Positions 6,761-39,371 are shown, counted from the stretch's first letter. The stretch: 64,000 bases of DNA from Salinivirgaceae bacterium (GCA_016342715.1 JAEINW010000001.1:5984-69983), one strand, 5' to 3'. Notes: generated by a model from the sequence alone, not told the origin. Translations and numbers: made by a program.

Positions 6761-6772
6761 ATTTTCATCTAC

Positions 6773-8551: not shown

Positions 8552-8558
8552 AAACAAT

Positions 8559-16998: not shown

Positions 16999-17030
16999 GG
17001 AACTTCGCATTTGATAAGTTTATACGTAAA

Positions 17031-20588: not shown

Positions 20589-20617
20589 TTGTATTCGGAG
20601 ATAAATAATATCATATA

Positions 20618-21775
20618 ATGAAAAGCAAATTAGAATACATATTAAAGCACAACCTCTTAATACAACAGATTTATAAAATAACCCTAAGTCTGTTTTTTAG
20701 ATTTGTTGGTTTGTTTATAAGAACAGATGAAAAACTTATTCTTTTAAATTCTTTTGGTGGACGAAAGTATAATGATAGCCCTAAAGTTATTTTTGAATAT
20801 ATGTCAAACCATGTTTTGTATAAAGACTTGACTTATGTATGGGCTTTTGAGAGTCCGCAAGATTTTGATATTCTAAATGCAAAAAAGATTAAAATCGATT
20901 CATGGACATACTTTATAACTGCTTTGAAAGCTAAATATTGGATATCGTCAGTAAACATTGAAAGAGGTTTAAAATTTAAAAAGAAAAATACAATTTATCT
21001 TAACACATGGCATGGTGCTGGAACAAAAAAAATAGGGAACGCTGTTGCTGGACGAAAAGATTTTGATTTTTCGAATGTTAATATAATGCTTGTTCAAAGC
21101 GTATATGAAAAGAAAATTTTTAGAAAAGATTTTCTAGTTCAGAATAATGATTTTTTACTTAGTGGATTTCCTAGAAGTGATGAACTATTTTACACAGATA
21201 AGGATCAGATAGAGCAATATAAAAAGGAACTAAATATTCCATCAAACAAAAAAATATTACTTTATGCACCTACATGGAGAGATAGTATAAATGGTGGGCA
21301 AAGTTATGATATAAAACCTCCAATAAATATAAATAAGTGGCAAAACCAATTAGGTGATGAGTATATTGTATTATTTAGAACGCATGCATTTACTACTAAG
21401 GTACTAAATATGAAGTTCAATGATTTTGTTCGTGATGCATCCTCTTACGAAAATCTTAATCATCTACTAAAAATAGCTGATATTGTTATAACTGATTATT
21501 CCACCTTAGTTTTTGATTATTCTATTCTTGAAAAGCCATTTTTATGTTTTGGTTATGATTATTGTAGATATAAGGAGGAAAGAGGATTTTACCTTGATAT
21601 CGAGAAAGAATATCCTTCAGGTGTGTTGAAAACAGAGGATGAAGTCTTAAAGTATATTATGGAGATGGATTATGAACACGAAGTTGAAAAGGTGCGTAAA
21701 TTTAAAATGAAATTTATTGAAGCAGGAGGAAAAGCAACGGAGTTATCAGTAAAAAGAATGTTTAATATCAGTTAG
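20618..21775 (+). CDS. TagF/TagB-family CDP-alcohol phosphotransferase (CDP-glycerol glycerophosphotransferase family)
   Basis: NTWHGAGTKKIG and LLYAPTWRDS family motifs, 385 aa. Confidence 0.7.
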   Translation: MKSKLEYILKHNLLIQQIYKITLSLFFRFVGLFIRTDEKLILLNSFGGRKYNDSPKVIFEYMSNHVLYKDLTYVWAFESPQDFDILNAKKIKIDSWTYFITALKAKYWISSVNIERGLKFKKKNTIYLNTWHGAGTKKIGNAVAGRKDFDFSNVNIMLVQSVYEKKIFRKDFLVQNNDFLLSGFPRSDELFYTDKDQIEQYKKELNIPSNKKILLYAPTWRDSINGGQSYDIKPPININKWQNQLGDEYIVLFRTHAFTTKVLNMKFNDFVRDASSYENLNHLLKIADIVITDYSTLVFDYSILEKPFLCFGYDYCRYKEERGFYLDIEKEYPSGVLKTEDEVLKYIMEMDYEHEVEKVRKFKMKFIEAGGKATELSVKRMFNIS

Positions 21776-25011: not shown

Positions 25012-26271
25012 ATGGTGATTGTTGGTATAATAGGTTGCTTATTAGTGTTATTGTTTGTTCATACTGTATTAAAAGATTTTAAATCCCCTCCATTTATACT
25101 TGGTGCATTATGGCTGTTTGCCTATGTCTCTTTATATATATTTAAAGGTGGTATTGCCAATTTTAACAGTATCTATTATCTTTCATTTTTGATTGGACTA
25201 TGCTTTTTTGTTTTTGGTTTTTTTTTAAAAGTTGGAAATCGAAATAGGATTAATAGTAACATTATATTTGAAAGAAAAAGTTATATACGATTTAAGCTGC
25301 CATATATACAGATTTTTTTATTGATAGCTTTTATTTTATTTCTTATTTATATAATAAAAGCAGCTCTTTTTGTATCTAAAGAATTTGATTTTAATTTTTG
25401 GCGTACTCTTAGTCGAGGTCGAAAAACTGGAGATTTAAATATCCCTCTAGTGGTAGAATATTCTAGAAGTGCAATTATTGCACTTTCTACTGTTTGTGGT
25501 ATAATATATTTTAGTAATTCTTCGAAATTAAACAGGCGTCATTTTATATTTTCTTCAATAATAGCTTTGTTTTATGTTGTGACTGCTGGGAATAGAGGAG
25601 CAATTTTTCTTTGGGTATTGTCATTAACATTTAGTTATTTAATTATTAAAAATTTTGATAATAGAAAGCTATTTTCCATACTTTGGAAAATGGCTCTAAT
25701 TATTATAGGAATTTTTGTAGTTACTAATTTTGCAAAGTATGTTTATACAGATCAAAGCGATCCACTTAAATTTTCAATAAATCTTATTGGACATTATTTT
25801 TCATCCTCAACTGTTGCTTTTGTTGAATGGATGAAATTACCCAGAGACTATCTATTTGGGGCAAATACATTTCGTTTTTTTTTAGCAATTCTTGATGCAA
25901 TTGGTATGGATGTCAAGGTACCTGAATTAATCCAAGAAGAAATACATTTTTATGGTGATAAAACAAATATTTATACAGTATTGCATTATTATACCAAAGA
26001 TTTTGGGTTGTTATATGCATTTGTAATGCAATTATTAATGGGGATGTTCTATGGTGTTTTATATACTCATTCAACTTTATCAAAGAAGCTAAATATTTTT
26101 TATATTGCTTTATTATCTATTTTATATTTTCCTTTAATTAATCAATTTTTTGATGATAAGTACTTTTCTATATTATCATCGTGGATACAATTGTTTTTTT
26201 GGATATGGTTGTTTACAAGAAAGTTATTTTTAACAGGTGATGAAATCGTAGTAGATGATGAAATAACTTAA
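25012..26271 (+). CDS. Polytopic membrane protein, putative repeat-unit polymerase (Wzy)
   Basis: About 10 or more hydrophobic segments and no soluble domain. Its position between glycosyltransferases and Wzx fits a polymerase. Confidence 0.55.
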   Translation: MVIVGIIGCLLVLLFVHTVLKDFKSPPFILGALWLFAYVSLYIFKGGIANFNSIYYLSFLIGLCFFVFGFFLKVGNRNRINSNIIFERKSYIRFKLPYIQIFLLIAFILFLIYIIKAALFVSKEFDFNFWRTLSRGRKTGDLNIPLVVEYSRSAIIALSTVCGIIYFSNSSKLNRRHFIFSSIIALFYVVTAGNRGAIFLWVLSLTFSYLIIKNFDNRKLFSILWKMALIIIGIFVVTNFAKYVYTDQSDPLKFSINLIGHYFSSSTVAFVEWMKLPRDYLFGANTFRFFLAILDAIGMDVKVPELIQEEIHFYGDKTNIYTVLHYYTKDFGLLYAFVMQLLMGMFYGVLYTHSTLSKKLNIFYIALLSILYFPLINQFFDDKYFSILSSWIQLFFWIWLFTRKLFLTGDEIVVDDEIT

Positions 26272-26280
26272 TTTATACTA

Positions 26281-26340
26281 ATGAAACACTCACGAGAAAG
26301 ATTCTCACATTAGGACATGAAAATAATTTGAGTGTTTCAT
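26281..26340 (+). other. Intergenic stem-loop (12-bp perfect inverted repeat, 36-nt loop)
   Basis: ATGAAACACTCA (26281-26292) pairs with TGAGTGTTTCAT (26329-26340). Confidence 0.45.
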
Positions 26341-26367
26341 GATATATACAAGATGTAAGTTCTTTTA

Positions 26368-26375
26368 TAAATTTG
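26368..26375 (+). promoter_or_regulatory. Candidate internal -7 box (TAnnTTTG)
   Basis: TAAATTTG, 41 nt upstream of the GTG start at 26416. Confidence 0.35.
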
Positions 26376-26415
26376 CATTTAATAAAAAAAAGAATTTTAA
26401 ATAAATTATATACAC

Positions 26416-27321
26416 GTGAAAACAGTTCAAGTATTACTATCATCATATAATGGTGAAAAATATATTCTTCAACAATTAGGTAGTATTTTTAAGCAGAAAG
26501 GCGTGGATGTTTTTTGTTTGGTAAGGGATGATGGTTCAAAGGATAATACTCTTAATATATTATTAGATTGTAAAAAGGTCTATAAAAATTTGGAGGTTAT
26601 AGTAGGAGAGAATATCGGTTATGGAGCTAGTTTTTTGGAACTAATTAAGCTTTCTGGTGATTTTGATTTTTATTCATTCTCAGACCAAGATGATGTATGG
26701 GAGCCCTTAAAGCTAATAGCAGCAGTTGAACACATAAAAAAAATGGAGAATGTTCCTACTATGTATTTTTCTAATTTAACAATTGTTGATAATGAATTAA
26801 ATAAAATTGGAGTCTTACATAATATCGGCAATCCTATTCCAGATGATAAGTTAACAGCATTAGTTCAAGGATTTACTCATGGATGTACTATGGTTTTTAA
26901 TAAAAATTCCCGAAATTTAGTTAATAGCTATAAGCCACTTCAGAGTTATGCTCATGACTTTTGGATTCCTCTAATTCACTTTTTTGTTGGAAAAATTATA
27001 TACGATAAAAATTCATTTATAAATTATCGTCAACATGATAATAATGTATTTGGACAAAAACGCTCTCTATTAAGATTATTGATGCTTAAATTAACTTTTT
27101 TCTCTGAAAAGAAAAATTATTATTCATTGTTGGCTAAAGATTTGATTCTGGGATTTAAAAATATTTTAAATACAGAAGATTATCAAAACCTTAAGGATAT
27201 ATCCGAATATAGTAACACTTTTAGTGGCAAGCTAAAGCTATTGTTTAATAGGAAAATTAAAAGAAATACTTTTAAGGGAACAATTATTTTAAAGTTCTTA
27301 ATATTATTTTCAAAATTTTAG
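26416..27321 (+). CDS. Glycosyltransferase family 2
   Basis: VLLSSYNGEKYI, VRDDGSKDNT, FSDQDDVW (DxD). GTG start. Confidence 0.8.
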   Translation: MKTVQVLLSSYNGEKYILQQLGSIFKQKGVDVFCLVRDDGSKDNTLNILLDCKKVYKNLEVIVGENIGYGASFLELIKLSGDFDFYSFSDQDDVWEPLKLIAAVEHIKKMENVPTMYFSNLTIVDNELNKIGVLHNIGNPIPDDKLTALVQGFTHGCTMVFNKNSRNLVNSYKPLQSYAHDFWIPLIHFFVGKIIYDKNSFINYRQHDNNVFGQKRSLLRLLMLKLTFFSEKKNYYSLLAKDLILGFKNILNTEDYQNLKDISEYSNTFSGKLKLLFNRKIKRNTFKGTIILKFLILFSKF

Positions 27322-27338
27322 GATTACGTAAATTATTT

Positions 27339-28760
27339 ATGGTGGCAGACAAGCTTTTTCAAGTATTAAAAAATCTTTCATATACAATAATATCAAATCT
27401 GGTATCATTACTAGTTTCAGTGTTTGTGATTCTTATTATTCCTAAATTAATTGGAGTTGTAGAATATGGTTATTGGCAATTATATTTATTTTATACCCTG
27501 TATGTTGGTTTTCTTCATTTTGGTTGGAATGATGGCATTTATTTAAGGTATGGAGGTGCCGATTATAATTCTTTAGACAAACGGTTGTTTTTTTCGCAGT
27601 TTCATATGTTGGTTATATTGCAAATTTTTGTTGCAATTGTTACAGCCATAATTACATATTTTTATGTTGAGGATGGTAATCGAACCTTTATCTTTTACAT
27701 GGTCTCTTTATGTTTGGTTATTACAAACATAAGATGGATGCTAATATTTGTACTTCAGGCTACAAATAGAATAAAGGAGTATGCATTTATTACTTTAATA
27801 GGTAGGATATTGTATATAAGTATAATTTCAGTTTTATTAATAAGTGGTTTTAGGAATTATAAATTAATGATTTGGGCAGATGTTATCGGAAAAGCTATCT
27901 CATTATTATATGCAATATATTGCTGCAAGGACATTGTATTTAGGAAAATCTCCTCATTCTATTTTAGTTTTAATGAAACCATTCAAAATATTTCTGCGGG
28001 TGTTAAATTAATGTTTGCAACAATAGCAAGTATGTTAGTAATTGGAGTTGTAAGATTGGGAATTGAACGGACTTGGGATGTAAGTACCTTTGGTAAGGTG
28101 TCATTAACATTAAGTATCTCAAACATGATGATGATATTTATTAATGCTGTTGGTATAGTTATTTTCCCTTTATTAAGGCGTGCTAATCAAGATAGATTAC
28201 CAAACATTTATACATCTATAAGAGATTTATTAATGGTTATGCTACTTGGGATACTTATAATTTATTTTCCATTAAAAGAAGTGCTTGCTTCCTGGTTACC
28301 TAAATATGCCGAAAGTTTACGGTATATGGCTTTACTTTTTCCCATTTGTATATATGAGGGTAAAATGGCTCTTTTAATAAATACCTATTTAAAGACTTTA
28401 CGCAAGGAGCAATTAATGCTAAAGATCAATATTGCTACTCTAATTTTGAGTACCGTAATAACTTTTGTATTTACAGTTGTGCTCAATAATCTTAATCTGG
28501 TTATAGTTTCTATTGTATTTCTTCTGGCTTTTAGAGCAGTGTTAGCAGAATATTTTCTTTCTAAAATATTAAAAGTACACCTTGGTAAGGATATTATTTT
28601 AGAACTTATATTGACTCTTGTTTTTATTGCATCCGGTTGGTATATTGATTCATGGTTAACTGTCATTGTTTATGGTGTATTCTATTTACTATATATACTT
28701 GTTAAGTATAAAGTTATAATTCAAGCAATAAATGATTTAAAAAAAATAGCAAAGGAGTAA
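27339..28760 (+). CDS. Wzx-type (MOP superfamily) oligosaccharide flippase
   Basis: 473 aa, about 12-14 hydrophobic segments, typical flippase layout. Confidence 0.7.
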   Translation: MVADKLFQVLKNLSYTIISNLVSLLVSVFVILIIPKLIGVVEYGYWQLYLFYTLYVGFLHFGWNDGIYLRYGGADYNSLDKRLFFSQFHMLVILQIFVAIVTAIITYFYVEDGNRTFIFYMVSLCLVITNIRWMLIFVLQATNRIKEYAFITLIGRILYISIISVLLISGFRNYKLMIWADVIGKAISLLYAIYCCKDIVFRKISSFYFSFNETIQNISAGVKLMFATIASMLVIGVVRLGIERTWDVSTFGKVSLTLSISNMMMIFINAVGIVIFPLLRRANQDRLPNIYTSIRDLLMVMLLGILIIYFPLKEVLASWLPKYAESLRYMALLFPICIYEGKMALLINTYLKTLRKEQLMLKINIATLILSTVITFVFTVVLNNLNLVIVSIVFLLAFRAVLAEYFLSKILKVHLGKDIILELILTLVFIASGWYIDSWLTVIVYGVFYLLYILVKYKVIIQAINDLKKIAKE

Positions 28761-28776
28761 CTAAATAATATCATAA

Positions 28777-31377
28777 ATGTTTAAAGGAATTATTAAATAC
28801 AATTCATTTTTTTTTACGCTACCAATACTAGCTTCTTTAGCTTTAATATTTAGAGCTTTATTGCCATTTCAGTTAGCTCTTTCAGGCGGAGCTTTTTTTG
28901 TTTTTAGTGTATTTTATCTATTTAAATTTTCATTAAAAGATATTTTCAATGATGTAATAAGTGCATTAAAGAGTGGAATTTTATTCTTTACCGTTGCATT
29001 AATTTTATTGATAGTAATAGCATACTCTAAAACAGGATTATCAATAGTTGAGAAAGAGGCTTTTAGAGTTATATCTAGTATAATAATGTTTGTACTGTTA
29101 TATATTGTATCTAAAAGAAAAGGAATTGTATTCGTAATAAATAAATTTATAGATCTTTTCTTACTGTTTGTTTTAGTAATAGTATTCTATGCTATATATA
29201 GGCTTTCGAATCCTTTATATTCTCTTAGTTTGTTTTCCAGAAGCATTGATTTCAATATGTTCTCGATGTATCTTATAATGACTATAATTTTGATAGCTTA
29301 TAAATTACATAATAAAAAATATTCTAAGTGGAAGATTTACGGATTTAATTTATTTCTTTTTATATTAACAATAATTATTATTTTTTCTTCTTCACGAAGA
29401 GGAATAATTATATTAGGAGCCTTGTTTATTGTAATCCTTTGTGGGTTAATCATTAGGAGTTATCGAAAGACCTCAAAAAAGTTTGGTTTGTATTTTATTC
29501 TACTTACGCTTTTAGTAACTACTTCATTTTTTATTGTTGCAAATAACAATTTAAGATATTATTTAACTACTCAAATTAAATCAAATTCATTTAAGTGGAA
29601 ACTAAATGCAATTGCATCTGATTATAATTCTATTGTAAGTAAAGATCCAAACATCATACATTTTTTTCATCCTTTACCCGTGGGTTCAAAAACTATTAGA
29701 AAAGAAATTTTAAAAAATTATAGTAAAAATCAGGATGTAAATAGTGTATATCAAAGTATAAATAACTTAGCACTTTTTACTAAATCAAGAAAAGAGCTTA
29801 ATTCTTTAATTAAAGAGGCAAAGATAATTCCAGATACTATTTTTACGAAACAAAATACAATACAATTACCTAATTACTACAATTTAGATTATAATTTTAA
29901 ATACAGCTTTATACCTATTAGTTTTGGTAATTGCGAATTAAGATCTTTTACGCCAAACGTTAATGATTCTACTTTTGTTTTTCAATCACTTAAGCCAAAT
30001 GATAGATGTAGAATACTTAGCTTTTTACCACTAAGTGATAGTTCAAGATTTACTTTGGAATTTACTTATTTTGATTCTCAGCAATCAACTAACATTAAAA
30101 TCTTTGATAAGAAAAGAAATCCATTACCATTTGTATTGATGGATACGGTAGTAAATATTGGAGTAAATAAGTTTAAAAAACAATATAGAGTTGAAATATT
30201 TGATGCTGAATCCGATCAACTTTGTATTGAGATTGATTTTGTTGCTCCTTATTTAAAAATGTCAAATGTCAATTGGACGAGACAAAGTTTATCCTCTGAA
30301 GCAAAGTATTCTCCTGTAAAAGCAATTTTTAATAAACAAGATTATAATAAAAGAATTGATTTAATAAAAAAATTACATAATCCTAATCAGCATTTATTAA
30401 TTAATAGAGATTCTTTATTGTTAATCCATGATTTAATTTTAGCCAACGAAGATTTTAGAAATTATGCAAGATGCGAAATTGATAGTATAACAAATACTAA
30501 TGCATTTTTTAATGTAACTGATAATTATGGTGCTGTAATGAAAAAAGTACCAACAATCCCAGGGCAGAAATATGTTGTGTCGTATTATACCAATATTGAT
30601 CCTCAAAATTTGTTTTATAGAGTTGGCAGATACCCTCAGGTTGAACCTGAATTTACTAAAATAGTTGAGCTTAAAAAAGAGTTTACAAAAGAGGGTGAAT
30701 TGTTTTTTGTTAAGGATTCATTTATAGTTGAAGATTGTCTCTCCCTTCGTTCAAGTTTGGTAATTGGGTCAAAAATTAAAGATGATTCTTTAGTTGTTTC
30801 AAAATTTAAATACAAAATATATCCAGATACTAAAGAAATATGTCTTTCTCCTCGTCAATTAAAAGGTGCTCAAGAATTATTCAGAATGGCAAATATTGCT
30901 GATAGACAAAATGCACGATCTATTCAAGATAGTTTATTGAATTTTTATGGGTTAAATTTACCAACAAAAGAAACGGATTTACTTACAGGTCGCTTATTAC
31001 ATTATAAGTTAGGATTTAGTTTGTTTAAAAGATATAATTTAATAGCCAAGTTGATAGGCAATCAATTTAGTTATTTAAATATTTATGGGAAAGTTTTTTA
31101 CTCAGAAGATACGGATTATGGGTATCCACACAATCCTGTGATATCAGCAGTTTTATATTCTGGGGTTGTAGGAGGTATTCTATATTTATGGTTTTTGGTA
31201 TTAGCAATAGTTAAGTATATAAAAGGAAGGAAGAAATTTTCAATATTTTTTATTTTGTTCATTATTGCTTTTGCATTCTCATTTTTTAGTGGAAATAGTC
31301 ACTTCTCAATTCCAATTTTTACATTGCTATCTTTTATTCCATTTCTTAATACTAAAACAATAACTAATAATGACTAA
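28777..31377 (+). CDS. Wzy_C/O-antigen-ligase-like membrane protein with a ~530-aa extracytoplasmic insert
   Basis: N-terminal transmembrane bundle with FSSSRRG. The C-terminal YGYPHNPVISAVLYSGVVGG plus transmembrane segments is collinear with the equivalent part of 37425..39371. Residues ~257-785 are non-hydrophobic. Confidence 0.55.
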   Translation: MFKGIIKYNSFFFTLPILASLALIFRALLPFQLALSGGAFFVFSVFYLFKFSLKDIFNDVISALKSGILFFTVALILLIVIAYSKTGLSIVEKEAFRVISSIIMFVLLYIVSKRKGIVFVINKFIDLFLLFVLVIVFYAIYRLSNPLYSLSLFSRSIDFNMFSMYLIMTIILIAYKLHNKKYSKWKIYGFNLFLFILTIIIIFSSSRRGIIILGALFIVILCGLIIRSYRKTSKKFGLYFILLTLLVTTSFFIVANNNLRYYLTTQIKSNSFKWKLNAIASDYNSIVSKDPNIIHFFHPLPVGSKTIRKEILKNYSKNQDVNSVYQSINNLALFTKSRKELNSLIKEAKIIPDTIFTKQNTIQLPNYYNLDYNFKYSFIPISFGNCELRSFTPNVNDSTFVFQSLKPNDRCRILSFLPLSDSSRFTLEFTYFDSQQSTNIKIFDKKRNPLPFVLMDTVVNIGVNKFKKQYRVEIFDAESDQLCIEIDFVAPYLKMSNVNWTRQSLSSEAKYSPVKAIFNKQDYNKRIDLIKKLHNPNQHLLINRDSLLLIHDLILANEDFRNYARCEIDSITNTNAFFNVTDNYGAVMKKVPTIPGQKYVVSYYTNIDPQNLFYRVGRYPQVEPEFTKIVELKKEFTKEGELFFVKDSFIVEDCLSLRSSLVIGSKIKDDSLVVSKFKYKIYPDTKEICLSPRQLKGAQELFRMANIADRQNARSIQDSLLNFYGLNLPTKETDLLTGRLLHYKLGFSLFKRYNLIAKLIGNQFSYLNIYGKVFYSEDTDYGYPHNPVISAVLYSGVVGGILYLWFLVLAIVKYIKGRKKFSIFFILFIIAFAFSFFSGNSHFSIPIFTLLSFIPFLNTKTITNND

Positions 31378-32257
31378 GATATCTATCATAGGCTCTGATT
31401 CTTTCATAGCCACTCAATTTCACAATTCAATCGAAAACGAGGAAAATATAAAATTATTTTCCCGTCAGTCATCAGGCAAGCAAAATGAAATTGTAAAAGA
31501 TTTATTTCAAATTACAGCAAATAATTTCATAGGAGCTGAAGTTGTAATCAATTTTGCTGCAATAGTTCATCAGCCAAAACTTAAAGATGAGGCGATATAC
31601 AAAAAGGTAAATACAGAATTACCCATTCATTTAGCTAAAGAAGCAAAAAAAGCAGGAGTGAAACACTTTATTCAAATGAGTACTGTTGCAGTTTACGGGA
31701 ATGTTACATCAATTGATGAAAATATGCTTGAGAATCCAGTAAATATTTATGGTAAATCCAAACTGAATGCTGATAACGCTTTGTTAGCTATGCAGAATGA
31801 AAACTTTAAAGTGAGTATTATTCGTCCTCCAATGGTATATGGTGGTGGAAATGCTCCAGGTAATTTAATGAGTTTAATCAGGGCAGCTCAAAAAGGAATT
31901 CCAATGCCATTCAAAGGAGTGAATAATGCAAGAGATTTCATTCATGTAAGTAACTTGGTGCAGGCATTAAATTTAGTTGTTGCTAATACAATTACCGGAG
32001 TTGCTATTCCAACCGATAATAGTCCGGTATCAACTGAAGCAATTATAAATTTTGTAAAACTTCATTCGTCGAAGCGAGTTCGGCAGATTCAAATTCCTAA
32101 ATTTGCACATGTTCTTGTGAAAAAGATGCTTCCTTCCATTTATACTAAAGTCTTTGGTGATTTAAGAGTGCAATGTAATTTGCCTGATACTTATCAACCT
32201 AAATATGGAATTGAAGAAGGATTAAAAGAGATGGTTGCAACGATTGAAGTCATTTAA
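31370..32257 (+). CDS. NAD-dependent epimerase/dehydratase-family protein
   Basis: SDR fold with YGKSKLNAD (YxxxK). The N-terminal glycine motif is degenerate (IIGSDSFIA). Confidence 0.6.
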   Translation: MTKISIIGSDSFIATQFHNSIENEENIKLFSRQSSGKQNEIVKDLFQITANNFIGAEVVINFAAIVHQPKLKDEAIYKKVNTELPIHLAKEAKKAGVKHFIQMSTVAVYGNVTSIDENMLENPVNIYGKSKLNADNALLAMQNENFKVSIIRPPMVYGGGNAPGNLMSLIRAAQKGIPMPFKGVNNARDFIHVSNLVQALNLVVANTITGVAIPTDNSPVSTEAIINFVKLHSSKRVRQIQIPKFAHVLVKKMLPSIYTKVFGDLRVQCNLPDTYQPKYGIEEGLKEMVATIEVI

Positions 32258-32306: not shown

Positions 32307-33092
32307 TTAAAACAACAAGGCAAACCCCTTATCTCTTTTCTTATATTTTTCAAGTTCCAGTTTGAAAAACTTGCTTTGTTGCAAACATATAAAATCCCTA
32401 AAAATAGTGAGATCTTCAAGTTCTTCCGTTTTGTTAAGAGCCTCAATATAGGCAGCTCGGTCTTCTGTAAATATTTTCAGTAAGGGTTCGTTGTGGTAAA
32501 ATTGAATGTAATTCATTAACAATCTGGCAGTTCTTCCGTTTCCATCGCCAAAAGGGTGAATGTTTATAAAGTTATAATGAAAATCGGCAGCCAGTTTTAA
32601 TACATCATTTTCATTAACATTAGCTAATTTATCATTTATATTTTTAAGTAGTTGGTTCAACAGGGATTCAACTTTTTTAAAATCGGGAAAATATTTTTTA
32701 TCCACATAAACCTGAGCAAGTCGCAAATCACCTTTTGAAGTATCAAAAGAATCACCCATGGAGTTTACTTTGCCTCCAGTATGTTGCATTACTATTGCAG
32801 CAGTCTCTTTCAAAAAATCAATAGATAGGCTACATTTTGCCTGCGCTTTTTCCTTTATAAATAAGAAGGCATTATAATGGTCTTTTACCATTAAGTGGTC
32901 TGTCAATGGTTTGCCATTTGCAGTAATGCCATTTTCCAATAATATTATAGTGTCATTTTCACTAAGTGAGCAGCCTTCAATTTTGGTAGAATGGTAAACC
33001 ATAGAAATCATAGATAATTTCTCATAATCGATTACCTGATCAAGGTTTAGATCAAGATATTTTTTTCTTAATAATTCCAATTCTTTCCACAT
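32307..33092 (-). CDS. Fic-family protein (putative AMPylase) with an N-terminal auto-inhibitory motif
   Basis: Fic motif HPFGDGNGRTARLL. STKIEG matches the (S/T)xxxE(G/N) inhibitory-helix motif. Confidence 0.9.
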   Translation of the reverse strand: MWKELELLRKKYLDLNLDQVIDYEKLSMISMVYHSTKIEGCSLSENDTIILLENGITANGKPLTDHLMVKDHYNAFLFIKEKAQAKCSLSIDFLKETAAIVMQHTGGKVNSMGDSFDTSKGDLRLAQVYVDKKYFPDFKKVESLLNQLLKNINDKLANVNENDVLKLAADFHYNFINIHPFGDGNGRTARLLMNYIQFYHNEPLLKIFTEDRAAYIEALNKTEELEDLTIFRDFICLQQSKFFKLELEKYKKRDKGFALLF

Positions 33093-33177
33093 GTGTGCAA
33101 AATTAGGATAAAATATATTGTTGATGGTAATATAAGTGGTTATTTTTGCATTTCTCTTTCTATAATTCGTTAATATT

Positions 33178-33340
33178 CGTGGCTAAAATATTTTTACTAT
33201 GATATTTTTTACCTTATACTTTTTATAGCAGCGCTAGGCTTAACCTATTTAGTTCGTTTCTTAGCCCTCAAAAAATACATAATTGATAACCCCAATGAGC
33301 GCAGTTCACATACCATTCCAACATCGTGGTGGTGGGTTGG
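33178..33340 (+). pseudogene. Decayed duplicate of the 5' end (plus ~20 nt upstream) of the wecA-like gene at 36419
   Basis: Aligns by eye at about four-fifths identity to 36398-36560. A 1-nt deletion after the ATG (33199) gives a stop at codon 10. The corrected frame reads YLILFIAALGLTYLVRFLALKKYIIDNPNERSSHTIPT and then diverges. Confidence 0.75.
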
Positions 33341-33502
33341 TAAAAGTCAATTAATCCCAAAATTGTCATTAGACTTCATCTAATTTGCAATTCGATAAAG
33401 AATATCTAAACCTTTCAACGATGCTGAAAGGTAAGATTTTCTAGATACGTCTTACGGCTGTTGTCATTGAAGATTTTGCAAATCTCTAATGACAAATCTC
33501 GG

Positions 33503-34696
33503 TTAATATAAAAAGCCAAACATCCATAAAGGGATTGTTTTGTTAACACCCGTTTCTATATTGTCTTTTACTAAATAGGCATCGCTTATTGTATTTATTT
33601 GTTGTCGTGTTTTATTTTTTCCTCCTACTTCAAAAGTATATTTATCGTCAATTAAAAAATCACCGTTTTTTGGTAAATTTATTTTGTGTTGGTATGACAA
33701 CTGATTTATGAAGAAGGTTTCCCTCAGGTTTCCGCTTACTGCATTTTCTTCAGCAATGGAATATATTAAGTTAGTGTTTCTTAGGTGCAATTTTTCTGGT
33801 TTACTTAATTGGCTAACACCTTTGTTGCTTTGGTGTAGTTGGATTAATAAATGAGCCTTTTCTAAAAGCACCAAAGCTTTTATCATAAAGGGTCGAGAGA
33901 GTTCAATTTTTTCGCTTAGTTTACTAATGTTGGGTGTGAATGGAACACTTGTGGCAACTGAAAAAAGCAGTTTTTTAAGTTTAACAATATGGTTATAATC
34001 CAGATTTTCAATGGCACCCAAATCAACATCTAATATAAGTTGAATGGTATTCATTACTTTTTGATAGTAGTCTTCAATACCTTCAATAAAATATGGATAC
34101 TGGCCGTATTTTAGATATTTATTGAATTCAAATACCGGTTTGATTTTTTTTAAAATATCAAAGGATATTTCTTGATGGTTTTCTAATATTTCATCCAATT
34201 TTAATTCAGGTAGTTTAATTTGACTTTCTAATTCAATAAACTCACGGAGCGATAATTCTGGTAATTCAAAAGTGATGGCTCTTCTGCTTAAATCAGATTC
34301 AGCTTGAAAAATATTGAGTATGGATGAGGAGGTGAAAAGTACCTGCAAGCTTGGAAAATCATCATAAATTAGCTTTAATTCTCGCGACCAATTGGGGTAT
34401 TTGTGAACCTCATCTATTAATAAATGTTTACCATTATTAATAACGAATTGTTCAGCCAGACTGTAAAGCGTATTTTTTGTAAAGAAGAGATCATCCATGG
34501 CAAAATAGAGTACAGAATTATCTATAGGTAAAAATTTTTTAGCATACTGCAAAAGTAGGGTGGTTTTGCCGATACCTCGTGCACCTTTAATCGCAATTAA
34601 ACGGTGCTTAAATATGTTCTCACTTATTAGAAACCGTTGAAAAGTTAAGTTTATTTGTTCAATTTTGCGGTTCGATTTTATAAGTAATTTTTCCAT
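33503..34696 (-). CDS. AAA-family ATPase (AAA_14 + DUF4143 type, COG1373-like)
   Basis: Walker A GARGIGKTTLLLQ, Walker B LLIDEVHKYP, 397 aa. Confidence 0.75.
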   Translation of the reverse strand: MEKLLIKSNRKIEQINLTFQRFLISENIFKHRLIAIKGARGIGKTTLLLQYAKKFLPIDNSVLYFAMDDLFFTKNTLYSLAEQFVINNGKHLLIDEVHKYPNWSRELKLIYDDFPSLQVLFTSSSILNIFQAESDLSRRAITFELPELSLREFIELESQIKLPELKLDEILENHQEISFDILKKIKPVFEFNKYLKYGQYPYFIEGIEDYYQKVMNTIQLILDVDLGAIENLDYNHIVKLKKLLFSVATSVPFTPNISKLSEKIELSRPFMIKALVLLEKAHLLIQLHQSNKGVSQLSKPEKLHLRNTNLIYSIAEENAVSGNLRETFFINQLSYQHKINLPKNGDFLIDDKYTFEVGGKNKTRQQINTISDAYLVKDNIETGVNKTIPLWMFGFLY

Positions 34697-34936: not shown

Positions 34937-36322
34937 ATGCATTTAAACCAGATACTGACTTCTGGAGAAAACGAACAAACAGAATTTAAGTTAATTTGGA
35001 AAACAGATTGGCTTAAAACTATTTGTGCATTTTCAAATACCAAAGGTGGTGTTTTAATAATTGGTGTTTCTGATACTGGTGAAATTGAAGGGATTAAAAA
35101 TAGTAAGAAACTTATTGAAGATATTCCAAATACCATTTTAAACCAACTTGCAATTATTTGTTCAGTGGAATTAAAATTGGTTGAAAATAAAGACATTATC
35201 CTTGTTGAGATAAAACCATCTTATGCACCGGTGTCTTTTAGAGGTGTTTTTTATGCTAGGAGTGGTGCTGTTACATTGGCCTTGAATGGGGGCGAATTAT
35301 CCAAATTTTTACTTAAGAAATATGGAAAAACCTGGGATGATGTTATTGTAGATAATTTCACAATTCATGATATCAATATTGAAACTATTGAGTTTTTTAA
35401 ATCATTGGCTAAAAATCGTATGCCATTTTTGGAAAAAGAAAGTGATTTGAAAGTACTATTGGAGAAACTAAACCTTTTTGATGGAGAATACTTAAAGCGA
35501 GCTGCTGTTTTACTTTTTGGCAAAAATCCACAAAAGTTTTTTATTCAATCGCATTCAAAAATTGGAAGATTCAAATCTGAAACAAATATTATTTCAAGTG
35601 ATGTTGTGGAGGGTAATCTTTTTCAACAAGTTCAAGAGATACTTACTGTTTTACGAAATAAGTATTTAAAAAATGAGATTAGCTTTGAAGGGATATATCG
35701 AAAAGAGGAACTTGAGTATCCTGAAGCTGCATTACGAGAGGCAATAATAAATGCATTAATTCATCGCGACTATACAAATAATTCAAATTTGCAGATTAAA
35801 GTGTATGACTCTAAGTTGGTTTTGACAAATGGAGCTGATTTGCCAAGTCAATTGAATATAAATGATTTAGATAAACCCCATCCTTCTTTACCAACAAATC
35901 CCACTATTGCAGCAATTTTTTATAAGGCAGGTCTTATTGAAAACTGGGGGCGAGGAACTATAAATATGATTGAGGAGTGCATTGCTAAAGGCTTACCCAT
36001 TCCGGAGTATAAATATGAATTTACAACTTTTCAAATTGTATTTCATAAAAATGACACTGTAAATGACACTGTAAATGACACTGTAAATGACACTGTAAAT
36101 GACACTGTAAATGACACTAAAGAAAATCGTAATGAATTGATATTGAATTTAATCAAGAGTAATAATAAGATAACGTTACTTGAGATGGCCTCAGTATGTG
36201 GTGTGTCACTTCGAACAATTACAAGAGATATTGAAAAATTTAAAAAAATGGGTGTTTTGATCCGAGAGGGCAGTGATAAAACAGGACACTGGAAAGTAAA
36301 AAGCAACGAAGTATCTAAATGA
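34937..36322 (+). CDS. COG2865-type putative regulator (AlbA_2/Schlafen-like + ATPase-like + wHTH), paralog of 11834..13210
   Basis: GENEQTEFKLIW...FSNTKGGVLIIG, LREAIINALIHRDY, C-terminal ITLLEMASVCGVSLRTITRDIEKFKKMGVL. Has an (NDTV)5 linker. Confidence 0.7.
   Translation: MHLNQILTSGENEQTEFKLIWKTDWLKTICAFSNTKGGVLIIGVSDTGEIEGIKNSKKLIEDIPNTILNQLAIICSVELKLVENKDIILVEIKPSYAPVSFRGVFYARSGAVTLALNGGELSKFLLKKYGKTWDDVIVDNFTIHDINIETIEFFKSLAKNRMPFLEKESDLKVLLEKLNLFDGEYLKRAAVLLFGKNPQKFFIQSHSKIGRFKSETNIISSDVVEGNLFQQVQEILTVLRNKYLKNEISFEGIYRKEELEYPEAALREAIINALIHRDYTNNSNLQIKVYDSKLVLTNGADLPSQLNINDLDKPHPSLPTNPTIAAIFYKAGLIENWGRGTINMIEECIAKGLPIPEYKYEFTTFQIVFHKNDTVNDTVNDTVNDTVNDTVNDTKENRNELILNLIKSNNKITLLEMASVCGVSLRTITRDIEKFKKMGVLIREGSDKTGHWKVKSNEVSK
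36050..36118 (+). repeat. Perfect 12-bp tandem repeat, 5 full copies plus 9 nt, in-frame
   Basis: AATGACACTGTA x5 followed by AATGACACT. Encodes NDTV x5 + NDT. Confidence 0.95.
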
Positions 36323-37424: not shown

Positions 37425-39371
37425 ATGATAGCTCTTAAAAATTTAGATAAAAACAAATTATTAATAAATACATTTCAATTTACCCTGACCTTATGGATTT
37501 TTCGTATGGTTTTACCAGGTGTTAAGTATGTTTTTATTCCTACATTTTTGTTTTTTATTTTGTTAATTATTTCTACACAATCAAAATCAATCTTTAGAAG
37601 AGCCTATATTTTTGAGTTCCTAAAAACATTCAATCCATTATTAATTTTAGGAGTGTTCTTTTTCTTGGGGATTATAATCTCTGGTGAATTTTATAGTAGG
37701 GCATTTAAGGACATTTTTGAATATCTAATAAATCTATCCTTTTTAGTAATCTTTTTTGCTCTTACGCATCGTTCAAGAAAACAAGATGGCTTTTTAGCTG
37801 TTTTTAGAAGATTTGCTAAAATAATAAAAGGATCTTCTGTTATTATAGCAGTTCTGGGACTAACAAAATTTTCTTTACAACTTCTAAATTGGGACATGCC
37901 TCTTGACACTCCTTTTGGAACAGCTTTCAATCAGGATGTCAACTTTTATGCACTATATTCATTTCTTGGAGTAATTAGTTTTTATCCGCGCCTGGCAAAA
38001 GAAAACTTATTTAAAAAACGAATTACCGTTCAAATTTCTTTAGTAATATTGTTACTGAATATTATATTTTCTTTTTCATTCAGGTCTTTCTTTATACTAG
38101 GCTTTATTTTGCTAGTATTGATGTTTTTTCAAGTTTATATTATTATTAAAAGACATTCCATTCGAGTAAAATTATTAGCCCGAAATTTACGCTTACTGAC
38201 TGTTTTGTTGGTTTTGTTTTTTGTATCTGTTTTTTATGGAATTAATCAAAGTGAATCCTTATATCAAAATTTGGTTGAAATATATAATGAAGAAAACGCT
38301 ATTGATTTTAGAAATCAAGAAATAAAAGCGATAGCTCAAAACACATTCAATATAGATAAATGGGAGTATGCATTTGAAATCTTTCAATCTCAAAATTTAA
38401 TACAAAAACTATTTGGTAGAGGATTTAATTATTTTGAGGCTTACGGATTGAAATTTAATGGAGATAAAAACATTTATGATTATCCTCACAATCCCGTATT
38501 GTCAGCTTTATTATACTCTGGTATTATAGGTGCAATTTTTATCTTATTTTTCATATTCACATCTTTTTATTATTCTGTTTTATATTTTAAAAAGTATCCA
38601 TTATTTTCAATGATGCTTTTTGTAAGCCTCATGTTTGTATCCTTTAGCGGTAACAGTTTATTTAGTGTGCCCATCTTTTTATTTTTGTTTTCATTGTCTT
38701 TTTTAATTCGACATCAGGAAATTTCAGAACTAAAATTAGTGGTAAATATTAAAAAACCAGGAAGTAAATTTATAAAGGAGACATTCGACTATATTGTAGC
38801 TTCCATAGCCTTAGTAGCACTTTCTCCAATACTTATTATTTTAAGTTTCTTCATTGGCTTCACCATGGGATGGCCTGTAGTTTTTAGTCAGAAGCGTATT
38901 GGCCAAAATGGAAAATCATTTCGATTGCATAAATTTCGTAGTATGAAAAAATCAAAATCAAATACAACGGTTGCTGCACAAGAAATTAATAGAATAACTC
39001 GTTTAGGTAGAATTATGCGAAAGTACAAATTAGATGAGTTACCAGAATTATGGAATATTATAAGAGGGGATATGAGTTTTGTGGGTCCTAGACCAGATGT
39101 TCCCGGTTATGCCGATAAATTATCTGGAGAAGATAGAATTATTTTGGACTTAAAACCAGGACTTACTGGCGCAGCTTCATTAAAATATATGCACGAAGAA
39201 GAATTACTTGCTAAACAAGAAGATCCACAAAAATATAACGATGAAGTGATTTTCCCTGATAAAGTATATGTAAATAAAAAGTATATGGAAAAGTGGAATC
39301 TTTGGTTGGATATTAAAATTATTATTTATACTGCCATGGGTAAATCTATGGATGAAAATTATTTTTTATAG
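37425..39371 (+). CDS. Fusion protein: Wzy_C/O-antigen-ligase-like membrane domain + PglC/WbaP-C-type monotopic phosphoglycosyl transferase
   Basis: Residues 1-~430 are polytopic with YDYPHNPVLSALLYSGIIG. Residues ~443-648 carry the bacterial sugar transferase motifs KFRSMKK and LDELPELWNIIRGDMSFVGPRPDVPGY. The ORF is uninterrupted. Confidence 0.75.
   Translation: MIALKNLDKNKLLINTFQFTLTLWIFRMVLPGVKYVFIPTFLFFILLIISTQSKSIFRRAYIFEFLKTFNPLLILGVFFFLGIIISGEFYSRAFKDIFEYLINLSFLVIFFALTHRSRKQDGFLAVFRRFAKIIKGSSVIIAVLGLTKFSLQLLNWDMPLDTPFGTAFNQDVNFYALYSFLGVISFYPRLAKENLFKKRITVQISLVILLLNIIFSFSFRSFFILGFILLVLMFFQVYIIIKRHSIRVKLLARNLRLLTVLLVLFFVSVFYGINQSESLYQNLVEIYNEENAIDFRNQEIKAIAQNTFNIDKWEYAFEIFQSQNLIQKLFGRGFNYFEAYGLKFNGDKNIYDYPHNPVLSALLYSGIIGAIFILFFIFTSFYYSVLYFKKYPLFSMMLFVSLMFVSFSGNSLFSVPIFLFLFSLSFLIRHQEISELKLVVNIKKPGSKFIKETFDYIVASIALVALSPILIILSFFIGFTMGWPVVFSQKRIGQNGKSFRLHKFRSMKKSKSNTTVAAQEINRITRLGRIMRKYKLDELPELWNIIRGDMSFVGPRPDVPGYADKLSGEDRIILDLKPGLTGAASLKYMHEEELLAKQEDPQKYNDEVIFPDKVYVNKKYMEKWNLWLDIKIIIYTAMGKSMDENYFL

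Follow-up and report, generated by a model that had tools for sequence, protein, structure and literature searches.

The ligases, polymerases and O-oligosaccharyltransferases of the Wzy_C superfamily determine what bacteria display at their surface and serve in the production of glycoconjugate vaccines. How these enzymes choose their donors and acceptors is poorly understood. WaaL and PglL have in common two conserved Arg residues and a conserved His, which are Arg215, Arg288 and His338 in Escherichia coli WaaL (PMC3643930, PMC10920833), and the position that activates the acceptor is occupied by His in O-antigen ligases and by Asp or Glu in the related inverting polymerases (PMC10920833). The Pfam family Wzy_C includes polymerases and O-oligosaccharyltransferases too. 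No Wzy_C protein or O-antigen ligase with an inserted carbohydrate-binding module (CBM) or beta-sandwich is described in the literature that we searched, including two surveys (PMC10920833, PMC12004945). The protein analyzed here is a rare, so far undescribed variant of this familiar enzyme type, and its family is tiny and comes from MAGs only.

The gene is an ATG-started open frame in a 64,000-nucleotide stretch of Salinivirgaceae DNA, which we call the window (Table 1). Its GC content is even from end to end, and its 866-residue product is identical to JEZ09_00170, a Salinivirgaceae MAG protein labelled “hypothetical protein”. The initial annotation had described an N-terminal bundle of hydrophobic helices to about residue 256, followed by a non-hydrophobic, extracytoplasmic loop of about 530 residues rich in Asn, Lys, Phe and Tyr. 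Hydropathy and the AF2 model agree with the bundle, placing nine TM helices before residue ~255 and three more at residues 787–856; the FSSSRRG motif (residues 203–209) lies within it. The loops that follow TM4, TM6, TM8 and TM10 contain 3, 4, 5 and 4 Lys/Arg residues, respectively, and no Asp or Glu. Because these Lys/Arg-only loops follow even-numbered helices, the large loop after TM9 is predicted to be periplasmic, as had been proposed, which gives a polytopic core with a large catalytic loop between TM9 and TM10. Within residues 257–742 no 19-residue window exceeds a Kyte-Doolittle value of 1.03, in line with a non-hydrophobic loop of the annotated total length, but only about 450 residues are a true insertion and the remainder is the normal Wzy_C loop. 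The supposed bias in composition was not borne out, as the most abundant residues are Leu, Lys, Asn, Ser and Ile, which is ordinary for a genome of 26–31% GC.

Table 1. Features of the 866-residue protein and of its neighbors (coordinates in the window; all on the + strand).
Feature	Residues	Nucleotides	Strand	Basis
Whole gene; Wzy_C-superfamily membrane protein with enlarged periplasmic loop	1–866	28777..31377	+	Open frame, database identity
TM helices 1–9 of the GT-C-type core (predicted)	1–256	28777..29544	+	Hydropathy, AF2 helices, positive-inside pattern
Candidate catalytic Arg pair of SSSRRG, periplasmic end of TM7/TM8	207–208	29395..29400	+	Invariant in 9/9 family members
Periplasmic helical region (predicted)	257–362	29545..29862	+	AF2, Wzy_C profile break
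Beta-sandwich domain 1 (predicted)	366–508	29872..30300	+	AF2, Foldseek, invariant residues
Two-helix linker between beta-sandwiches (predicted)	509–557	30301..30447	+	AF2, conservation
Beta-sandwich domain 2 (predicted)	558–688	30448..30840	+	AF2, conservation
Long helix leading the chain back into the Wzy_C loop (predicted)	689–734	30841..30978	+	AF2, conservation
Conserved Wzy_C periplasmic helices	735–786	30979..31134	+	BLASTP to paralogue, hhalign to WaaL
TM helices 10–12 (predicted)	787–856	31135..31344	+	Hydropathy, AF2, conservation
Wzx flippase, directly upstream, 16-nt gap		27339..28760	+	59% identity to Polysacc_synt protein of locus L001
Dedicated Wzy, the repeat-unit polymerase of this locus		25012..26271	+	TIGR04370, E 1e-33, 117 bits (cut-off 40)
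Short-chain NAD-dependent epimerase/reductase		31370..32257	+	Start overlaps the stop of the 866-residue gene by 8 nt
Paralogue; Wzy_C-like domain with ~100-aa loop, fused to Bac_transf phosphoglycosyl transferase		37425..39371	+	Pfam, BLASTP

The polymerase/ligase-type identity put forward in the initial annotation was then examined against the Pfam profile Wzy_C (PF04932), and it held for the spliced sequence. The intact protein failed this search, with E 0.1 in two pieces and no Pfam match of any kind at E<0.01. When residues 268–731 were removed, the profile was matched over positions 2–149 of 149 with E 2.4e-8 and 34.3 bits, above the gathering score of 31.7, and 12 of 13 relatives passed after the same splicing. 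In the intact proteins, the two halves match positions 2–63 and 64–149 separately. Because the spliced but not the intact sequence passes end to end, we conclude that the Wzy_C domain is split, between profile positions 63 and 64, by an insertion of ~450 residues; the profile breaks at about residue 258. As far as profile comparison goes, these results show a GT-C(B)-type enzyme of the Wzy_C superfamily, which would use an undecaprenyl-diphosphate-linked (Und-PP-linked) glycan. Profile searches of the PDB returned no solved WaaL structure, either at E≤10 with the spliced profile or at E≤1 with the full-length profile. WaaL is also absent from the best 50 Foldseek matches, because the beta domains dominate that list.

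The residues expected of a ligase-type active site can be placed on both sides of the insertion. An alignment to E. coli K-12 WaaL by hhalign, which is weak (E 0.02), pairs Arg288 with Arg739 (nt 30991–30993) and His338 with His785 of the YPHNP motif (nt 31129–31131). The two residues are 46 positions apart, compared with 48–51 in WaaL and PglL (numbering from PMC3643930 and PMC10920833). The SSSRRG motif sits at the start of the Wzy_C match, and Arg207/Arg208 are candidates for the first phosphate-binding Arg, the counterpart of WaaL Arg215, by position only. The Arg-Arg-His set of WaaL and PglL is thus matched through the weak alignment for Arg739 and His785 and by position for the SRR motif, and the insertion falls between the first and the second Arg. 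In an alignment of 13 spliced sequences, Arg208 and His785 are invariant, as expected of a His-type enzyme, and Arg207 and Arg739 are nearly so. Conservation within the protein peaks in the parts that hold the catalytic Arg and His residues and in the C-terminal TM helices (44–59% identity, with TM10–12 highest at 59% mean identity), and SRR and PHN are invariant.

For the catalytic loop and TM10–12, the nearest relative by sequence is the paralogue at 37425..39371, with which they share the YPHNP, LYSG and FSGNS motifs. Residues 743–847 align without gaps to residues 313–417 of the paralogue with 41% identity (BLASTP E 3e-21), far beyond chance; the position-by-position alignment reported earlier for the C-terminal ~90 residues is therefore real, and it extends over 105. 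The distance from SRR to PHN is 578 residues here, 136 in the paralogue and ~122–136 in ordinary members. The paralogue differs in its loop of normal length, in its C-terminal phosphoglycosyl transferase (PGT) and in having Asn/Lys where the long protein has Arg739.

AlphaFold predicts the insert to consist, in order, of helices, a beta-sandwich, helices, a second beta-sandwich and a long helix. The normal Wzy_C loop still includes the first helices of residues 257–362, and the insertion opens with the remainder of this region. Beta-sandwich 1 has about ten predicted strands (pLDDT ~80–90) and carries invariant YNxDYxF...FxP and LPxSDSS motifs, beta-sandwich 2 (pLDDT 85–94) has a conserved TNIxPxxLxYxxxRxP loop, and the long helix bears a conserved QDSLL motif in its stretch 692–723. 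Mean pairwise identity, with few indels, is 31.5% in beta-sandwich 1 and 37.9% in beta-sandwich 2, compared with 27% in the N-terminal TM bundle, the lowest value of the structured parts; the linker is the least conserved part overall (20%). The models and the conservation support the view that the insert is a folded module under selection, conserved like the membrane core. The initial annotation had allowed that the central region might turn out to be membrane-embedded or disordered filler; it is instead predicted to be folded, is conserved and has no hydrophobic window.

Foldseek matched the modelled insert to a tandem CBM22 structure (4xup, E 5e-5) and to the Bacteroides thetaiotaomicron protein SGBP-B (7kwb, E 1e-4). 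The target-normalised TM-scores were 0.56 for a CBM (8xmz) and 0.48 each for CBM4 (1gui) and CBM27 (1of4), and the probabilities of the CBM matches were 0.99–1.00, the likeness being at the level of fold only. Phage receptor-binding proteins annotated as CenC-like, ConA-like or F5/8-C were also found, the CenC-like and ConA-like ones within the same range of probability. These comparisons show that both beta-sandwiches, as modelled, have a jelly-roll shape like that of carbohydrate-binding modules (CBM4/22/27-like), in agreement with the earlier suggestion that the large module might bind carbohydrate. Domain-level TM-scores to CBMs are only ~0.5, and by sequence the insert has no match to a described CBM family in Pfam or NCBIfam. 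The profile searches of the PDB gave nothing significant, and their only near-hit, to YceI-like polyisoprenoid-binding proteins (5w17, E 0.08, residues ~476–567), was set aside as noise, because in the AF2 model this stretch covers the last part of beta-sandwich 1 and the helical linker, with no YceI barrel. Comparison of the two beta-sandwiches by hhalign gave no similarity (E 0.38–0.7), so an internal duplication was rejected: the insert did not arise by recent tandem repetition. The periplasmic domains of Wzz proteins are mainly alpha-helical. A Wzz-like ruler domain is improbable, since the insert is mainly beta-sandwich.

A profile of the insert found about 10 matches among 1.84 billion representative proteins, all within its own family, of the same architecture and from Bacteroidales/Salinivirgaceae MAGs. 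Eight further full-length proteins from independent assemblies are collinear with the long protein at 29–46% identity. A second, word-indexed homologue search with the 9-sequence alignment added no new members, and a scan of GTDB species genomes returned only two MAGs, both already known. Because the insert interrupts the Pfam match, every member carries the label “hypothetical protein”. Other loop-expanded Wzy_C proteins of 571–832 residues occur on Bacteroidota metagenome contigs (P0004–P0007 and P0015–P0028). These sister proteins, none of which is annotated, have the core in common with the present family and carry their insert at the same site. Their inserts are beta-rich, some with matches to CBM_4_9; they differ from the present one in being ~100–150 residues shorter and in having no sequence homology to it, and HMMs of its sub-domains found no match in the inserts of P0004–P0007. 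The genes of P0005 and P0007 are likewise accompanied by another polymerase candidate in a Wzx/Wzy locus. The CBM-like inserts described here, together with other CBM-type inserts at the same site in the sister clades, suggest modular substrate recognition.

The genomic setting proved to be as first annotated, with the gene directly after Wzx and a separate conventional Wzy at 25012. The Wzx gene product has no Pfam match of its own, but a full-length alignment shows 59% identity to its syntenic counterpart in locus L001, which matches Polysacc_synt/Wzx. The pairing of the long-protein gene with the epimerase/reductase is also found in L001. In all five loci examined, the Wzy_C-PGT fusion followed by DegT is near the long-protein gene, which always closes a variable Wzx/Wzy locus on its 3′ side, at the junction with this conserved Wzy_C-PGT/DegT module. 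Each of the examined loci contains a candidate polymerase, which is of TIGR04370 type in the window, of EpsG type in L001 and L007, and of other types in the remaining loci. The candidates in the window are unrelated to those in L001. The same two loci share orthologues of the long protein (45% identity), of Wzx (59%) and of the PGT fusion (59%). Two further His-type Wzy_C proteins are encoded in the region, at 37425 and 44880, and the role of lipid A-core ligase could fall to any of the three or to none.

Of the roles that the initial annotation had considered, namely a second polymerase, a ligase or an O-oligosaccharyltransferase, the evidence leans toward the ligase type without settling the choice. 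Because each locus already has a polymerase candidate, because the gene is always at the junction of the variable locus and the conserved module, and because the polymerase candidates of the window and L001 are unrelated while the long protein, Wzx and the PGT fusion are orthologous, we favor, with a probability of about one half, an Und-PP-glycan transferase of ligase type that has its own glycan-binding modules rather than a repeat-unit polymerase. Since Wzx too is conserved between the window and L001, the argument from the variable locus is only partial. In the proposed mechanism, Wzx (27339) would flip the repeat unit of the locus and Wzy (25012) would polymerise it. The two Arg residues of the enzyme would hold the diphosphate of the Und-PP-glycan, and His785 would activate a hydroxyl on a conserved acceptor other than Und-PP. 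The glycan would be moved en bloc to this acceptor, for which lipid A-core/LOS or a different envelope glycoconjugate is the simplest candidate. The tandem lectin-like modules would sit above the active site, where they may bind the incoming polymer or the glycan acceptor and would thereby supply a capture or selection of substrate that is absent from plain WaaL.

A doubtful alternative is a polymerase, either a second one of Wzy type or one that makes a different linkage or polymer, with lectin-like modules that would hold the growing chain for processivity or chain-length control. Both polymerases and ligases belong to Pfam Wzy_C, the gene lies behind Wzx in a locus of Wzx/Wzy type, and a built-in ruler is conceivable because the window yielded no gene for Wzz, Wzc or Wza. 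A weak match of residues 39–271 to the polymerase family TIGR04370 (E 1.5e-4, 20.9 bits) points the same way, but it appears marginal: it lies under the cut-off of 40 bits, compared with 117 bits for the neighbor at 25012, and it was not repeated in NCBIfam searches of the spliced core, the insert and the two paralogues, which gave no match. Moreover, a strong polymerase candidate is already present in each locus, the acceptor-activating position holds His and not Asp/Glu (PMC10920833), and the protein is conserved across loci with differing polymerase candidates, unlike a repeat-unit-specific Wzy.

It is unlikely that the enzyme acts on proteins, either as a PglL-like O-oligosaccharyltransferase or as a glycan-to-glycan ligase that extends a protein-bound core glycan with an Und-PP-linked outer glycan, with the lectin-like domains recognising the glycoprotein acceptor. 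A general system of the phylum should be common, and only ~10 such proteins were found among 1.84 billion; the locus is a variable, polymerase-bearing polysaccharide locus, and no metG-wzx (LFG-type) arrangement was seen within the window. Among Pfam matches at E≤1 for this protein and six relatives there was no PglL-specific family or flanking motif, only Wzy_C and a weak DUF. [quoted passage not shown] The idea draws on the Arg/Arg/His signature, which is as in PglL (PMC3643930), on the Bacteroidota O-oligosaccharyltransferase and outer-glycan ligase, which “remain undiscovered” (PMC12871550; PMC8729774), and on the fit of a lectin-like acceptor-recognition module to a glycan acceptor. A more general form is more speculative still, namely that loop-expanded Bacteroidota Wzy_C proteins as a whole are glycan-to-glycan ligases whose lectin modules recognise a glycan acceptor, for example a protein-bound core glycan or the LOS core, and whose His/Arg site would join an Und-PP-linked polysaccharide to that acceptor.

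It is very improbable that this Wzy_C paralogue is catalytically dead or accessory and that the beta-sandwiches carry the real function, for instance in scaffolding, as an adaptor for export or as an inner-membrane phage-decoy lectin. The strong conservation of the catalytic Arg and His residues and of the C-terminal TM helices, with invariant SRR and PHN, argues for retained catalysis, although the presence of three His-type Wzy_C paralogues within the same region points to redundancy, conservation among the structured parts is lowest in the N-terminal TM bundle, and phage receptor-binding proteins are among the fold neighbors. An artefact of assembly or annotation, two genes joined by a frameshift or a chimeric contig, which the initial annotation had raised and at which only the missing Pfam match of the intact protein at default thresholds hints, can practically be dismissed, since the insertion lies within one Pfam domain whose halves flank it, eight independent full-length relatives repeat the architecture collinearly, and GC is uniform along the gene.

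The long protein and others like it could help to find acceptors or serve as templates for engineered ligases with new specificity. Profile-based annotation misses insert-split Wzy_C proteins of this kind entirely. If the glycan-to-glycan reading were true, the group would contain, or point to, the Bacteroidota outer-glycan ligase or O-oligosaccharyltransferase (PMC12871550, PMC8729774) and would represent a new way to display polysaccharide on envelope glycoproteins.

Compared with known systems, the long protein resembles WaaL (E. coli K-12; Cupriavidus metallidurans, PDB 7TPG; GT121) in its 12-TM core and periplasmic TM9–TM10 catalytic loop, in its Wzy_C match after splicing, in its Arg...Arg...His signature with similar Arg-His spacing, and in being encoded alongside Wzx and Wzy genes; it differs in the ~450-residue insertion with two predicted beta-sandwiches and has no detectable sequence match to solved WaaL. 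The PglL/PilO O-oligosaccharyltransferases have the same Wzy_C core and three catalytic residues (PMC3643930) and move Und-PP-linked glycans as a whole onto an acceptor that is not a lipid, whereas the long protein is without the PglL flanking motifs, lies in a polymerase-bearing locus and carries a large lectin-like insert. A precedent for a ligase-type Wzy_C enzyme with an acquired extra module is WadA of Brucella and Mesorhizobium (GT121 + GT25; PMC10920833). There the module is an appended glycosyltransferase of cytoplasmic type, in contrast to the lectin-like insertion that the long protein has in its periplasmic loop. The best Foldseek matches come from the C-terminal region of Cry1 protoxins (4w8j, 9h99 and 8w7n; E 5e-9 to 1.5e-8 over ~490–530 columns), where domain types and order match but the arrangement does not (global TM-score ~0.18, rmsd ~25 Å, ~10% identity). 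Like the insert, the 4w8j protoxin alternates helical and CBM-like beta-roll domains, and Cry1 has no functional link to the long protein. Periplasmic CBM-like domains are present in mycobacterial EmbA/B/C and AftD. The PMT protein O-mannosyltransferases have a luminal MIR domain (PMC7759382), a lectin-like extracytoplasmic module as in the long protein. PMT and Emb/AftD belong to another GT-C subclass and fold family, use other donors, and have beta-trefoil or terminal CBMs in place of a loop-inserted tandem jelly-roll, but the design is shared: a membrane transferase dependent on a polyprenyl-(di)phosphate-sugar is combined with an extracytoplasmic module of carbohydrate-binding type, which in these enzymes is thought to hold the acceptor or the product.

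The 866-aa protein is encoded by an open reading frame that runs uninterrupted from ATG to stop (Table). In a Kyte-Doolittle scan, its hydrophobic segments are confined to the region up to residue ~257 and to residues 787-843, and the top 19-residue mean within residues 257-742 is 1.03, well under the transmembrane (TM) level. Hydropathy and AlphaFold2 together give an order of nine helices, a loop and three helices. The loops after TM4, 6, 8 and 10 each carry 3-5 Lys/Arg and no acidic residues, which places them in the cytoplasm and the loop after TM9 in the periplasm; the predicted topology agrees with the WaaL pattern. The initial annotation had described the gene correctly overall, as to its open frame, its hydropathy, its alignment to a paralogue and its Wzx and Wzy neighbours. 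The C-terminal match to that paralogue, a Wzy_C-like domain fused to a Bac_transf phosphoglycosyl transferase (PGT), is indeed position by position (residues 743-847 against 313-417, ungapped, 41% identity, BLASTP E 3e-21), but it extends over 105 aa rather than the ~90 aa claimed. Similarly, the loop expansion put at ~530 aa is real and non-hydrophobic, but the true insertion is only about 450 aa; the spacing from SSSRRG to YPHNP is 578 residues, versus 136 in the paralogue. The loop, described as rich in Asn, Lys, Phe and Tyr, has a composition that is unremarkable for a genome of 26-31% GC. Few Cys residues occur in its periplasmic stretch ~262-735.

The intact protein matched nothing in Pfam at E<0.01. 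At E<=1, two protein ends matched separate halves of the Wzy_C profile: residues 193-258 of the 866-aa protein correspond to positions 2-63, and residues 708-802 of P0002, a 45% identical homologue, to positions 64-149. When residues 268-731 were removed and the remaining 402 aa were rescanned against Pfam, the match covered positions 2-149 of 149 (E 2.4e-8, 34.3 bits, curated cut-off 31.7), which confirms the proposed Wzy_C-type identity; 12 of 13 relatives spliced likewise also matched. Because the spliced sequence spans the whole profile, the protein is a single interrupted Wzy_C domain, and an origin of the reading frame from two fused genes is ruled out.

Three essential residues, R215, R288 and H338 in E. 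coli WaaL, are common to WaaL and PglL (PMC3643930). PMC10920833 gives R191, R265 and H313 as their equivalents in the solved C. metallidurans WaaL, and places His at the acceptor site of O-ligases versus Asp or Glu in related inverting polymerase families. Against the spliced family profile, E. coli K-12 WaaL scored weakly (E 0.02), with R288 falling on R739 and H338 on H785; these two lie 46 residues apart, versus 48-51 in WaaL and PglL. R208 and H785 do not vary among 13 sequences, and R207 and R739 hardly do. The periplasmic catalytic loop of this Wzy_C/GT-C(B)-type core bears the ligase-type Arg/Arg/His residues. On the His criterion of PMC10920833, the protein is ligase-type because it has His where inverting polymerases have Asp or Glu, with the caveat that the other two Wzy_C proteins of the window (37425 and 44880) are likewise His-type.

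AlphaFold2, run with nine family sequences as input, returned a mean pLDDT of 78.7 for the whole protein and 76.9 for the insert alone, with 80-94 in the beta domains. These values and the lack of TM-level hydropathy in residues 257-742 argue against a central region that is membrane-embedded or disordered filler. No sequence similarity was detected between the two predicted beta-sandwiches. In Foldseek searches of the PDB, the insert matched Cry1 protoxins over about 490-530 columns (E 5e-9 to 1.5e-8), with a global TM-score of only ~0.18, which reflects like domains, differently arranged. Further matches were the tandem CBM22-1/CBM22-2 of Xyn10C (4xup, E 5e-5) and B. thetaiotaomicron SGBP-B (7kwb, E 1e-4), and single CBMs gave target-normalised TM-scores of 0.56 (8xmz), 0.48 (CBM4, 1gui) and 0.48 (CBM27, 1of4). 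The best viral-model matches were receptor-binding and tail proteins annotated as CenC-like, ConA-like or F5/8 type C. No CBM family in Pfam or NCBIfam matched the insert by sequence. We conclude that the modelled insert holds two CBM/lectin-like jelly-roll domains, a likeness at the level of the fold with sugar binding putative; at that level, the earlier idea of a carbohydrate-binding-type module is borne out.

We built a profile of the insert (residues 258-742) from three homologues that are 45% identical and searched 1.84 billion representative proteins with it. No more than 10 reached E<=0.001: eight are full-length, 826-886 aa long, and carry the insert in the same place, and two are fragments; neither a stand-alone insert nor one in another protein context was found among these representatives. 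All named family members are annotated 'hypothetical protein' and come from Salinivirgaceae/Bacteroidales MAGs. The nine family sequences are collinear and 28-46% identical to the 866-aa protein, and GC content is level throughout the gene. The insert is under selection, because mean pairwise identity is higher in both sandwiches than in the N-terminal TM bundle. It is a conserved, folded orphan of two lectin-like beta-sandwiches.

The same core with a long loop is also seen in further metagenome-derived Bacteroidota proteins, which are 571-832 aa long. By sequence and profile comparison, the inserts of the sister-clade loop-expanded proteins show no homology to the 866-aa insert, and some of them (P0005 and P0028) match CBM_4_9. 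Beta-sandwich insertion in this position of the Wzy_C loop therefore recurs, and the 866-aa family is one rare version of it. The loops of P0004, P0005 and P0028 contain visibly duplicated ~170-aa modules, and the CBM_4_9 matches lie in the modules of the latter two. The P0005 gene (L005:123-2621) is followed by Wzx and then by a 610-aa Wzy_C protein, possibly one more with an expanded loop.

Features of the 866-aa protein, of locus 1 and of the fusion orthologues
Feature	Position	Strand	Mean pairwise identity	Details
866-aa gene	28777..31377	+
N-terminal TM bundle			27%
Helices	residues 257-357			AlphaFold2
Beta-sandwich 1	residues 380-504		31.5%	~10 strands, AlphaFold2
Two helices between sandwiches	residues 520-557			AlphaFold2
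Beta-sandwich 2	residues 561-682		37.9%	~10 strands, AlphaFold2
Long helix	residues 692-723			AlphaFold2
Conserved Wzy_C loop helices	residues 735-774			AlphaFold2
C-terminal TM helices			59%
Locus 1	about 9453-32257			includes 866-aa gene; glycosyltransferases, Wzy, Wzx, then 866-aa gene
Nucleotide-sugar genes, locus 1				rmlABCD, UDP-sugar dehydrogenases
Phosphonate branch, locus 1	16986-21775	+
Wzy polymerase, locus 1	25012..26271			TIGR04370, E 1e-33
Wzx, locus 1	27339..28760			no own Pfam match; 59% end-to-end identity to syntenic Polysacc_synt protein
SDR gene, locus 1				start overlaps 866-aa gene stop by 8 nt
Fusion, window	37425-39371	+
Fusion, L001	18242-20197
Fusion, L003	14825-16765
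Fusion, L008	13425-15281
Fusion, L010	12668-14578

Two Wzx/Wzy-type loci lie in tandem in the window. The conventional Wzy proposed at 25012 is confirmed by its TIGR04370 match, and the claim of a Wzx directly upstream of the 866-aa gene stands because that product is identical end to end at 59% of positions to a syntenic protein matching Polysacc_synt. GC content over 25012-31377 is 26.3% in Wzy, 27.0% in GT2, 28.5% in Wzx and 25.8% in the 866-aa gene, compared with 32-37% in nucleotide-sugar genes and a window mean of 31.4%; such clearly lower values in the membrane-protein genes are typical for the serotype-specific part of polysaccharide loci. The phosphonate branch, whose genes are also present in L001, comprises a PEP mutase-cytidylyltransferase fusion, a TPP decarboxylase (phosphonopyruvate decarboxylase-like), an Fe-ADH and a Glyphos_transf-family protein, and suggests that the locus-1 polysaccharide carries a hydroxyethyl- or aminoethyl-phosphonate-type group. 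Immediately upstream of the locus (6161-9353, +) lie genes for an APS kinase, for a CitMHS/Na-sulfate-symporter-type transporter with TrkA_C domains and for a CysQ-like member of the inositol-monophosphatase family, which suggest PAPS supply for a sulfated glycan.

An inserted island with Fic, AAA_14 ATPase and Schlafen/AlbA_2 genes separates the loci. The Fic-domain and AAA_14/DUF4143 genes (32307-34696, -) lie on the strand opposite to the loci, and in their place the corresponding junction of a related MAG (L001:13715-17970) carries the toxin-antitoxin genes ParE and HicA; the junction seems to attract insertions of small mobile or defence cassettes. Two Schlafen/AlbA_2-HATPase_c_4-HTH paralogues (11834-13210 and 34937-36322, both +; 29% identity, E 3e-51), co-directional in and between the polysaccharide loci, could act in regulating the loci or in defence. 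Locus 2 consists, in order, of a WecA-like gene, the Wzy_C-Bac_transf fusion, DegT, Wzx, two glycosyltransferases, an unassigned gene and a 431-aa Wzy_C protein. The last (44880-46175, +; Pfam E 2.3e-19) is His-type by its motifs SSRAG, VRWAYWK and FHNQYMETL, and could be the locus-2 polymerase or the actual lipid A-core ligase; three His-type Wzy_C proteins thus lie within 18 kb. Despite two complete-looking Wzx/Wzy loci, the scan of ORFs in the window turned up no Wza/OPX, Wzc/PCP or Wzz gene; export and chain-length functions must be encoded elsewhere or handled differently.

We compared the window with four other loci that contain family members (L001, L003, L008 and L010). In all four, a variable locus with its own polymerase candidate has the long gene at its 3' end, and this gene adjoins or lies near a module of the Wzy_C-PGT fusion followed by DegT. 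Wzx follows this module in three of the four, and in two (L003 and L008) a 430-448-aa Wzy_C gene stands at its end. The polymerase candidates of the window and of L001 are not related to each other; the orthologues of these two loci are 45% (long protein), 59% (Wzx) and 59% (fusion) identical. The fusion (618-651 aa), with a His-type Wzy_C-like membrane domain of normal loop and a C-terminal Bac_transf PGT, is present in all five loci with the long protein, always with the DegT aminotransferase following it. It unites a periplasm-facing ligase-like domain with a cytoplasm-facing initiating transferase, an architecture of which we found no description in the literature searched.

Taken as a whole, we give a probability of about one half to the reading that the 866-aa protein is a ligase-type Und-PP-glycan transferase with glycan-binding lectin-like modules. 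The upstream locus would make an Und-PP-linked glycan, which the enzyme would take and transfer en bloc to a conserved non-Und-PP acceptor, and the lectin-like modules may bind the polymer or a glycan acceptor. It seems unlikely that the protein is instead a polymerase, since its site is His-type, every locus has a dedicated polymerase, and the protein is kept across loci whose polymerases differ; none of these three grounds for a ligase is decisive. A protein-directed OTase or glycan ligase is improbable. The Bacteroidota O-glycan ligase/OTase is still undiscovered (PMC12871550, PMC8729774), and it would be a long shot that loop-expanded Wzy_C enzymes bear on it as glycan-to-glycan ligases.

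The core of the proposed ligase is a familiar enzyme type, and the novelty lies in the CBM-like insertion within the Wzy_C catalytic loop, of which we found no description in the literature searched, including a recent Wzy review, or in the passages searched of a CAZy survey. Among GT-C enzymes, Emb and AftD carry lectin-like modules. Another, PMT, has a lectin-like MIR domain (PMC7759382), and a precedent for added modules within the Wzy_C ligases themselves is WadA, which PMC10920833 describes with an extra GT25 domain.
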